Origin: an uncultured Methanosarcinales archaeon
GTDB taxonomy: Archaea; Nanobdellota; Nanobdellia; Woesearchaeales; UBA12501
Length of the DNA: 64,000 bases
NCBI GenBank assembly: GCA_964397315.1
Contig: CAYNHV010000003.1
Coordinates: 19,336-83,335, forward strand
Reading direction: 5' to 3'
Shown: piece after piece, positions 24,001 through 27,000 of the stretch
How the letters are laid out: each line of letters starts with the position of its first letter
How positions within the stretch are numbered: position 1 is the first letter of the stretch
Made by a program: the position numbers

Positions 24001-27000
24001 TATCTGTTCAAGGCTCCACTCCTTCTGAAGCCTCTTTTTAACTTCAGGAACACTCATCTTCAGGGTGTTCACTCTCAGGGATTTTCTCAGGTAGGCCCTG
24101 TTGTGCCTGTCAAACTCCTCCCAGCTGGTTAGCCTGGAATACCTGTCTATAAAATCCCTCTTGTACTCAAGGCCCTCTGCATGAGGGTTCTCTTCAAGCT
24201 GCTCCATTTTAAGACTCTAAGCCCCTTTCTCTTTATTAAAATTTCCCCGGCCATTTGTAACTTTCCCTTTAACAGCTTTAGAGCGCAAACCCCTAAGCCT
24301 GGAGCGCACTTGAGCAAAACTATGGGCTGGGCTTATTTGTGGCAGGAGAGGGGAGTTGTGCTGTTTTAGAATCAAAGAACCTGCATGCTGGTTCTGGAAA
24401 AAGGGTGGGAGGGACCATGAGTCATAAGCATAAAAACAACATAACATCCATAGGGCGGGAAGCGCTATGGGTTATAAACCTTATTGAAAATGGCGCAAAG
24501 CCATTTTCCAGTGGGTTTAAAGAAAATCCCGACTCTCAAGCTTAAATATAATTCCGACTGAAGTCGAAATTATAAGACTTGCCTAAGCTTCGCTTAGTCA
24601 AGCGTCTGGGATTTTCAGACTTGCAAATTCTGAAGAATTTGCAAGTAAAATGCAAATCCGTTAATACTTTGAGCTCTGCTCAAAGGGGAAGACGTCCTTT
24701 GGATGTCGACACCACACCAACAGAAAATACTTCGTATTTTCTTAGTTCCAAAAACAAGTTTTGGAACCTTGAGGGTGTGGTTAGGATTTGCTTTATAAGA
24801 TAATAGTCAAATTTTTATTATTTCTTTATCACATAAACAATCTCATTTGGAAACTCCAGTGTCTTGTATTCCATGCCGAGCCTTCTCAGCATCTTCTGGA
24901 ATCCCGCTCTTCTCTTGGCCTTCATGTCCTTCTTTGAGACTGTCTTTGTTGAGAAGCTGGCCGCAATCCACTTCACGTTCAGCTCTTTTATGATCCTTTC
25001 TGCTATCTTGCTGTCCAGCATGTCAAATATCTTGAATGCGAATGCGATGTCTGCCCGGTACCTTATCGGCTTTTCTTTTATGTCATGCTTCAGGGCATTC
25101 CCCTTTATTGATGCTGCGTCAAAGTACTTCTGTATGAGATCAGCATCATTCTGGTTCAGCTCCAGGGCAATGTAGTAGACTCCGCTGCCTATGCCCATAT
25201 AAGGGAATGAGAAAGGGTTCATTCCTGCTGCGATGTCAATTATTGAGAAGGGCTTTCCTGTTATGCTGAATATCCTCCTGTAGAAGTCCCTGTAGAAGCC
25301 CATCCTCTCTTTTGAAGACCTGTGGCTTGAAAGCGCCTTCTTCTCCCTGACCTTGCCCTTTTCAAGGTCATCCTTCACAGAAGCCAGGCTCTTGTCTATG
25401 AATATGCCATAGACGGTCCTCAGCTCTGCCCTCACGTGCTTTATCAGGGCCTTAAGCTCCCTTGACCTTTCAATCTGGCTGAAATCCTCTGCCTTTGAGA
25501 GCTTCTGCAGGGCCCGCTTGTTGTGGGAGAGAAAGTATTTCACCTTGCCTGCAACAATGTCATCATCAGCGTTCTCAAGGCCTTTTCTCTTCTTTATCCT
25601 GCTGATAATCCTGTCTGCAATCTCTCTCTTCACTGTGCTGTTCTGCACTCTCATGAGGGCAATTCAGGCGTATTATTATAAAAAGCTTTTCTAAGCGCAA
25701 ATTATATAATCAGGGAAATTATCATCCTGGTTATGGGAGGCAGAATTCCTGAGGTTGACGTGTTTAGAGGCACTGCAATACTCATGATGGCTGTTTTCCA
25801 CTTTGCATGGGACCTGAATTTTCTGGGTGTTGCAGGCATTGAGCTTTACTCAGGGGCTTGGGGCGTGTTCCAGAAGCTTACTGCAGGATTGTTCATATTC
25901 ATCGTTGGAGTGAGCCTCACCTTAAGCAGATCAATGCACAAGCGGAGAACAGGGCACTTTGCTGGGAGGGGGCTGAGGATATTCGGGTATGGCATGATAA
26001 TAACCCTGGCCTCGCTGTTGTTCATGCCTGAAGCTTTCGTGTTCTTCGGCATACTGCATTTCATAGGCGTTGCCATCATCATTGCGTCTCCTCTTGTGAG
26101 GCGGTCATGGCTGAATCTCCTGCTTGGCATTGCAGCAATAACTGCAGGCATACTTCTTGAGAATGTCAGGCTCGGGTTTCCGTGGCTTTTGTGGGTTTGG
26201 AATAACCATCCTGCCCACACACTAGACCTTTACCCTCTCCTGCCATGGGTTGGTGTTGTGCTGATAGGCATTTTCATCGGCAACATCCTCTACCCAGCAG
26301 GGAAGAGAAGATTCAGGGCGGACATTTCAGTGAAAACACTCAGGCCTGTGCGGTTCCTGGGAAGGCACGCGCTGCTCATGTATTTTGCGCACCTGCCTGT
26401 GGTTTTTGTACTGGCTTATGTTGTCTCCCTCTTTGCGGGATAAAAAAACAAAAAGAAAAAGTTTAATCCTCGTCGTCATCATCCTCAAAATCATCGTCAT
26501 CATCCGAGCATTTGATGGTGTAACCCATTGCTGCACCTCCTCATTTCTTTTTTCCTTTAGCTTCCTTCTTTGCCTTCTTCTTTGCCATGCGTGTTCACCT
26601 CCCGCGGGTATTGGGGCCCTAATCTCCCCTAATATATAGAAAGCAGGCTGAAGAATAAGCATCAAGAATCAGAACATGGCCTGTAATGCAGAACAGGTAT
26701 TTAAGGTTTTCTGTATCTGCCCTCAAACCCTCCAATATCTAACCTCATCTCTCTTATCCTGTAACGCTCTTATACTGGGCGTACAGGCCCTCAAACAGCC
26801 GGATAAAGCAAGAACTCCTGAAATCCCTCAATCGCAAAATTTATATAAGTAGCGGGCTTTCTTGTACTCAAGTGAGGTGCTCTTATGGCAAAGAAATGCC
26901 CGTTCTGCGGAAAAGGCAGCTTAAAAGAAGATGTTGATCTTGCTATTCACAATGGCAAGACAGAGGCAGTGAATGTCCTGAGATGCACTTCCTGCGGTAA

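Follow-up and report, generated by a model that had tools for sequence, protein, structure and literature searches.

What is a cluster of stable hairpins doing, in nearly the same form, in two gene spacers of one archaeal chromosome: is it a gene, a signal for its neighbors, or a piece of DNA that was copied from place to place? We addressed this question in a stretch of 64,000 nucleotides (hereafter the window) from contig CAYNHV010000003.1 of assembly GCA_964397315.1, positions 19,336 to 83,335, whose host is, judged by its sequence, a DPANN-type archaeon. The element, here called repeat B, is most probably not a known RNA gene but a small DNA repeat, either selfish or structural, of a type that is familiar in general terms. 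More narrowly, and with about even confidence, we read it as a lineage-specific, non-coding, modular palindromic dispersed repeat that behaves like MITEs (miniature inverted-repeat transposable elements), ERIC (enterobacterial repetitive intergenic consensus) sequences, and BOX elements, without being a classical MITE. This reading is preferred because the repeat has sharp edges and unrelated flanks, because the spacers that hold it are absent in relatives, and because one copy contains a piece made of the same modules.

Both copies of repeat B and the segment that distinguishes them are located as follows.

24476-24650, plus strand: repeat B copy 1, 175 nt, the complete core unit, with boundaries set by a repeat finder and alignment.
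29285-29570, plus strand: repeat B copy 2, 286 nt, whose core (29285-29384 plus 29502-29570) is split by extra segment X.
29385-29501, plus strand: extra segment X, 117 nt, with a junction that is ambiguous by the 4 nt ATAA and with ATAA on both sides.

The copies form a direct repeat 4.8 kb apart, and their cores are 93% identical over 173 aligned columns. Covariance model R1 scored copy 1 (24476-24650) at 214 bits and matched copy 2 at 29285-29437 and 29443-29568. Similarity begins suddenly at AAAC and stops suddenly at GCAAGTAA, with unrelated flanks on both sides. The initial annotation was right that there are two near-identical copies and that copy 1 is fused downstream of a copy of another repeat, repeat A, which it abuts directly (24271-24475). 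Its span for copy 1 (24481-24665) marks a real copy, although the coordinates were off by 5-15 nt, and its 115-bp insert is real, although 117 nt long. The "several" cgcaaRg loops it listed do occur, but only in the 5' hairpins of the two copies and in a single hairpin of the insert, and of the convergent or tandem neighbors it proposed, only the tandem arrangement applies, as both copies lie between tandem minus-strand genes. No further full copy was found in the window by word-7 blastn of the spacers or by the core covariance model with filters off, so that the window holds two full copies and probably one partial one, with one variant junction in an independent read set.

Copy 1 is predicted to fold at -68.1 kcal/mol on the plus strand, compared with -37.2 +/- 3.8 kcal/mol for shuffled sequences (z -8.2). 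The reverse strand of copy 1 gave z -7.6, copy 2 gave z -6.3, and DNA parameters gave z -9.1, and none of the shuffles folded as well as the B copies. The layout consists of three side-by-side domains (a 5' hairpin, a branched domain, and a 3' hairpin) with five hairpin modules in total, drawn here for copy 1.

24476-24518, plus strand: 5' hairpin P1, made of AAACCU/GGGUUU plus GAAAAUGGC/GCCAUUUUC, with a GCAAA loop.
24476-81/24513-18, plus strand: predicted helix of 6 bp.
24486-94/24500-08, plus strand: predicted helix of 9 bp, loop GCAAA.
24522-24616, plus strand: central branched domain, closed by the 12-bp stem GAAAAUCCCGAC/GUCUGGGAUUUUC and containing inner hairpins 24547-24574 and 24578-24602.
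24522-33/24604-16, plus strand: predicted closing stem of 12 bp.
24547-58/24563-74, plus strand: predicted helix of 11 bp.
24578-88/24592-602, plus strand: predicted helix of 10 bp.
24619-24646, plus strand: 3' hairpin P5, in which a perfect 12-bp stem carries a UGAA loop; it stops 4 nt short of the right edge.
24619-30/24635-46, plus strand: predicted helix of 12 bp.

Long, perfect stems of this kind (9-12 bp) resemble those of young DNA palindromes, which favors a dispersed DNA repeat. Most take the form GAAAAT...ATTTTC, placing T4-T5 runs on both strands. In copy 2, the P1 loop reads C(GCAA)G with a bulged A, and segment X is placed in the junction of the central domain, with all core helices intact.

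Segment X shares the hairpin style of the core, as had been noticed initially, and is made of the same modules.

29384-29464, plus strand: long imperfect hairpin of X, predicted fold.
29473-29498, plus strand: perfect 10-11-bp hairpin of X with a GCAA loop, predicted fold.

X and B were compared by manual alignment; a three-way MAFFT alignment misaligned them. In local alignment, nt 27-117 of X are colinear and in the same orientation with core nt 75-173, a span that begins at the first inner hairpin's tip, takes in the closing stem's 3' strand and the 3' hairpin, and finishes with the terminal TAA. The alignment score of 46 compares with 24.4 +/- 4.6 for dinucleotide shuffles, 3 of 2000 of which reached it (p about 0.002), and the last block is identical at 31 of 39 positions, with X ending on the same ...AA(G/T)TAA terminus as B. 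The X hairpin TTGGAAATTTC-GCAA-GAAATTTCCAA and the core 3' hairpin CTTGCAAATTC-TGAA-GAATTTGCAAG are set apart by an exchange of C-G for G-C and by a one-base indel that affects both arms, changes that leave each stem perfect. X is probably an older, partial, degenerate copy of B's own 3' half. It possibly arose by nested insertion, or as an old internal duplication that was later lost from copy 1 by deletion between the ATAA repeats; if X is indeed a B-like copy, the family would have copied itself more than once under either history.

An independent Logan assembly of SRR7048227 provided a variant of this junction. One of its contigs follows the window without a difference from 33036 to 29498 (100% identity), and its last base is then A where the window has T. 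The final 31-mer of this contig joins copy-2-specific bases (CAGG) to the junction TATAAG, which otherwise occurs only in the insert-less copy 1, and therefore hints that the SRR7048227 sample holds a further B copy or else an X-less allele of copy 2. A second SRR7048227 contig stops at 24775, inside domain C, the hairpin domain to the right of copy 1.

The spacers were compared with those of relatives with respect to the genes that flank them.

23248-24207, minus strand: RsmB/NOL1-type methyltransferase, flanking gene.
24818-25654, minus strand: homologue of Rmt/FmrO-like 16S rRNA methyltransferases, flanking gene.
27542-29212, minus strand: Elp3, with its start as in a 100%-identical database protein.
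29700-32342, minus strand: P-type ATPase, flanking gene.

The comparison set comprised forty loci encoding Elp3 relatives (about 370 kb), with neighbors identified by tblastn; the closest Elp3 relatives, at 73-74% identity, come from metagenome-assembled genomes. Gene order across these loci is beta-CASP nuclease, small protein, ATPase, Elp3, and NOL1, although all five never occur in one locus, and spacers measure about 7-90 nt. For example, the preceding gene ends 23 nt ahead of Elp3 in L007, the gap ahead of Elp3 is about 30-50 nt in L009, L023, and L044, and Elp3 and NOL1 are separated by 7-28 nt in L010, L011, and L033. The corresponding spacers of the window are longer, the one with copy 2 spanning 436-487 nt and the one with repeat A, copy 1, and domain C spanning 610 nt. 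The repeat-bearing DNA is therefore, on these comparative sequence grounds, a gain in the host lineage. Neither covariance model R1 nor blastn nor nhmmer found a B homologue in the relatives' Elp3 loci. Exact 20-22-mers common to both copies returned two chance matches to unrelated bacteria in a genome collection, and exact B words returned none in a metagenome collection. In a viral collection, an exact B 22-mer had no match and a 17-mer had two, taken as chance without inspection, while a search of phage DNA with B gave no match.

The initial annotation also proposed a mobile miniature element. That B is a discrete unit with sharp edges, in spacers absent from relatives, agrees with this proposal, but the hallmarks of a MITE were looked for and not found. 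The single transposon seen in the window is located as follows.

58585-59608: element of the insertion sequence (IS) family IS630, with 26-nt terminal inverted repeats.

Several observations weigh against a dispersed DNA repeat. Terminal inverted repeats are absent from B, as complementarity is lacking between its left end AAACCTTATTG... and its right end ...TTTGCAAGTAA; the sole 12-bp inverted pair in B is that of the inner central domain. No target-site duplication borders either copy (flanks GGGTTAT/AATGCAA and AGGCAG/TACCCCT), and a 4-nt ATAA pair is present only around X. Among the window proteins scanned, there is no candidate transposase for B, the sole transposase being that of IS630, to whose ends B has no similarity. 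Only two full copies were seen, in a window of 64 kb. The similarity between X and B is modest, and a sequence-only hidden Markov model built from both cores (B1, B2) did not match X; the identity of X as a B copy is therefore treated as probable, not proven. Lastly, a functional RNA would also be expected to show substitutions that avoid paired positions and better plus-strand pairing in copy 2, and likewise a P5-like hairpin in X that differs from P5 on both arms and still forms a perfect stem.

These last features lead to the rival explanation that survives best, although we consider it less probable: that the two B copies are paralogues of a small structured RNA gene, transcribed from the plus strand, antisense to its neighbors, with a multiloop expansion segment in copy 2. 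This is close to the processed small RNA that the initial annotation offered as its alternative. Differences between the copies fall on 5 of 113 paired columns and 8 of 49 unpaired columns (Fisher p=0.023), so that B stems are conserved more than loops. Three of the five stem changes are transitions that give G-U on the plus strand but A-C on the minus strand. Counted on the given structure, the pairs of copy 2 comprise 52 Watson-Crick and 4 G-U, along with 2 mismatches, when read on the plus strand versus 52, 1, and 5, respectively, on the minus strand, and its folding energy is -100.5 kcal/mol on the plus strand versus -85.0 kcal/mol on the minus strand. The GCAA and GCAAA loops are of GNRA type only when read on the plus strand. 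Together these results are suggestive of the plus strand as the folded one, either as RNA or as single-stranded DNA, with three changes favoring plus and two favoring minus, a bias that is not significant. An RNA gene would also fit the very strong folding z-scores, the placement of X in a junction with the core helices untouched, and a TTTTAAA box about 27 nt upstream of the first base of copy 2. However, copy 1 has no promoter-like box at a comparable distance, there is no oligo-T run past the 3' hairpin, the stem substitutions number only five, and perfect 12-bp stems are unusual in old functional RNAs. Rfam gave no match for the whole window at gathering score and only chance-level matches at E up to 10 on four spacers, and a tRNA/tmRNA scan found none. 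Neither the relatives' syntenic loci nor the exact-word scans held a homologue, and the spacers themselves are lineage-specific.

Less probable again is that B is a non-mobile cis-element of the host, a hairpin cassette that terminates, insulates, or stabilizes the 3' ends of the Rmt/FmrO-like and P-type ATPase genes and is placed ahead of the NOL1 and Elp3 promoters. Both copies lie 130-170 nt downstream of a minus-strand stop and upstream of the proximal TATA-like box of the next gene, in the same relative orientation, and the GAAAAT...ATTTTC stems with their T4-T5 runs would suit such a role on either strand. Some bacterial repeats at gene 3' ends are known to modulate mRNA stability or to resemble terminators (PMC3184786). 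Nonetheless, the same gene pairs in relatives are separated by 7-90 nt and have no such element, a similar cluster of hairpins at 11.5 kb is flanked by divergent genes, which need no terminator between them, and the T runs are only 4 long. Two copies that are 93% identical also imply copying and not independent origin.

Copying could in principle have been a single event, a one-off local duplication or gene conversion between nearby spacers that involved neither mobility nor function. The presence of only two full copies, 4.8 kb apart in direct orientation and flanking a block of genes, is consistent with this. We nevertheless think it unlikely, given the sharp edges at both ends with unrelated flanks, the preferential conservation of stems, the third, older B-like fragment in copy 2, and the extra junction variant in the independent read set. 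Finally, derivation of B as a MITE from the IS630 copy of the window is highly improbable: an IS630-type element (DDE_3 plus helix-turn-helix, in a split frame) is indeed present and the X junction ATAA contains TA, but the IS630 terminal repeat TAGTWARGGACAT... is missing from both B copies and from X, as well as from their vicinity, the ends of B are not mutual inverted repeats, and no TA duplication is seen at its edges. The IS630 transposase itself comes in two parts, helix-turn-helix (59064-59552) and DDE_3 (58588-59097), owing to a frameshift or a programmed shift, and lies in a region of low GC (0.39).

If B is a dispersed DNA repeat, a 175-bp unit of five hairpins would have reached, by copying, two or more intergenic spacers of a single DPANN-type archaeal chromosome. 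The unit would spread, or have spread, at the DNA level via its hairpins and not via terminal inverted repeats, with the copying enzyme presumably encoded outside the window, and internal pieces would be gained or lost at the short direct repeats ATAA. Upon read-through from the flanking genes, its A-tract/T-tract hairpins would give very stable RNA structures with U-runs, whichever strand is transcribed. The likeliest effect on the host, if any, would be that of a 3'-end, terminator, or insulator structure between tandem genes.

Repeat B is accompanied by other hairpin and repeat families, two of which adjoin copy 1.

24271-24475, plus strand: repeat A copy, abutting B copy 1 on the left, 73% identical to 8299-8482 and 69% identical to 50163-49996 (other strand).
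24651-24795, plus strand: domain C, single copy to the right of B copy 1, closed by GCAAAUCC/GGAUUUGC, with four perfect hairpins (z -6.9).

The window contains 22 perfect hairpins with stems of at least 8 bp compared with 1-10 in shuffles, and these are clustered in few long spacers. Closing stems of the type (A)AAATCC...GGATTT(T), extended to 8-11 bp, occur four times compared with 1.1 bare hexamer pairs expected: two belong to B, one to domain C, and one to a module at 11749-11827. Between divergent genes, the spacer at 11.53-11.84 kb (11530-11840) forms a 310-nt nest of closed hairpin domains (z -8.6). Its last module, 11751-11829, is found again at 52431-52557 on the opposite strand, where the flanks are conserved but the inner hairpins differ. 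Rfam returned no match for the hairpin elements at 11530-11840 and 52431-52557. Based on these clusters and on the recurring module, the host genome therefore carries several modular hairpin element families, B among them. Perfect hairpins of at least 9 bp are no denser in sampled relatives, a comparison that concerns overall density. Rather speculatively, B, domain C, and the clusters at 11.5 and 52.5 kb might together form a class of archaeal elements that has not been described before, be they structured RNAs or mobile DNA that depends on hairpins. Such elements would propagate with neither terminal inverted repeats nor target duplications, would insert into each other, and would maintain their stems through compensatory changes.

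Repeat A was seen at 8299-8560 (plus), 24271-24475 (plus), 49860-50166 (minus), and 11486-11513 (plus). It consists of a conserved block of ~170 nt (69-73% identity) followed by diverged units of 30-45 nt with the motif AAGGGNGGGAAGNACC..G.G.TAT.A, which occurs 9 times compared with 1.3 expected. Its orientation is uniform relative to the next gene, which encodes NOL1, an Obg-like GTPase, ribosomal protein S19e, or a 412-aa protein of no assigned function. A structured RNA was rejected for repeat A, as no covariation was found, and so was a small protein: the frame is open in all copies, but differences fall mostly at codon position 2, with no coding signature. Repeat A may instead be an upstream or promoter-like module.

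With respect to neighboring genes, the gene at 24818-25654 on the minus strand is a homologue of Rmt/FmrO 16S rRNA G1405 methyltransferases of the aminoglycoside-resistance type (Pfam 1e-19; NCBIfam 4e-34, below the curated cut-off). The syntenic loci of relatives lack a counterpart, and the gene may have been acquired together with the adjacent repeat-rich spacer. An open reading frame (ORF) of 98 aa at 29399-29695 on the minus strand starts right after the ATPase stop, contains a hydrophobic stretch, and runs into copy 2; called by the gene caller on the Logan contig, it is probably either spurious or a small membrane peptide altered by the repeat. One distant relative has a long spacer of its own near Elp3 (8338-9013 of L039), unrelated to B in sequence, with several perfect hairpins and, on the reverse strand, an apparent tRNA gene. 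Otherwise, the window consists of ordinary chromosomal sequence that encodes hydrogenase, phosphoenolpyruvate synthase, malate/lactate dehydrogenase, secretion ATPases, and ribosomal protein S19e. A 384-aa MCM-like ORF (4123-5277, plus strand) comprises only the P-loop and lid domains, and may be missing its N-terminal part or have a miscalled start.

Small dispersed repeats are well documented in bacteria and poorly in DPANN archaea, whose genomes are usually described as streamlined. The results here indicate that a DPANN-type genome can hold several hundred bases of highly structured repeat DNA, specific to its lineage, in the gaps between housekeeping genes that relatives keep closely packed. 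This has a bearing on assembly breaks, on annotation (spurious ORFs through the repeat), and possibly on the formation of transcript 3' ends. An RNA gene, if that explanation were true, would add a lineage-specific structured RNA, and neither the repeat nor the RNA explanation changes a major open question.

Certain other kinds of element were considered for B and rejected. Substitutions of a diversity-generating retroelement would be confined to the adenines of one copy, and one copy would lie inside a gene, whereas those between the B copies are C>T, A>G, G>A, C>A, T>C, and C>G, and both copies are intergenic. An integron attC site, which would be a single imperfect hairpin downstream of cassette genes, was dismissed as B is multi-branched and has no RYYYAAC...GTTRRRY core sites at its ends, and the flanking genes are conserved, syntenic housekeeping genes. 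A hammerhead-like core and a replication-origin box were each rejected on reading the sequence, and AAGCTT sites in the hairpins were discounted as a signal, being common throughout the window (56 versus 39 expected).

Among known systems, elements derived from IS200/IS605 have no terminal inverted repeats and no target duplication, carry hairpins just inside both ends, and show strand-asymmetric G-T pairing. B resembles them in its lack of terminal inverted repeats and target duplication, its subterminal hairpins, and its strand-asymmetric G-T pairing. However, such a derivation is disfavored, as the end hairpins (10 nt and 4 nt inside the left and right ends) are dissimilar and unrelated in sequence and the left flanks differ, with no common left tetranucleotide (TTAT, GCAG, ATAA). 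Neither a Y1 transposase nor TnpB was seen among the window proteins scanned, which come from 64 kb of the genome. Structured small RNAs are matched by the closed multi-helix junction, the GNRA-type loops, the tolerance of an insertion in the junction, and the retention of stems over loops, whereas B has no Rfam family, no conservation outside the host genome, and no defined promoter or terminator. Like repetitive extragenic palindromes (REPs) and the bacterial interspersed mosaic elements (BIMEs), B is a cluster of short extragenic palindromes between genes. REPs are 20-40 bp long, have a GTAG or CGTC head, and reach high copy number (PMC3733652). The hairpin arms of B have neither head, beginning GAAAAT, ACTTGC, and similar, and travel together as one 175-bp unit, so that this class was also rejected.

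Classical prokaryotic MITEs, such as the Correia elements of Neisseria, are defined by terminal inverted repeats and target-site duplications (PMC3184786). As the edges of B show neither, and no IS ends in the window match it, B was rejected as a classical MITE. It is nonetheless MITE-like in being under 400 bp, non-coding, intergenic, and repeated, with stable stem-loops near gene 3' ends. ERIC sequences, also called intergenic repeat units (IRU), and the pneumococcal BOX are modular intergenic repeats (PMC3184786). B differs from these in having no sequence relationship to them, an archaeal host, three side-by-side domains in place of one long imperfect palindrome, and two known copies. Internal insertions in some ERIC copies are said to have been described by Wilson and Sharp in 2006, and B is like ERIC and BOX in its hairpin modules, in an internal block that is present or absent between copies, in its transcribed spacers, and in its lineage-specific copy number.

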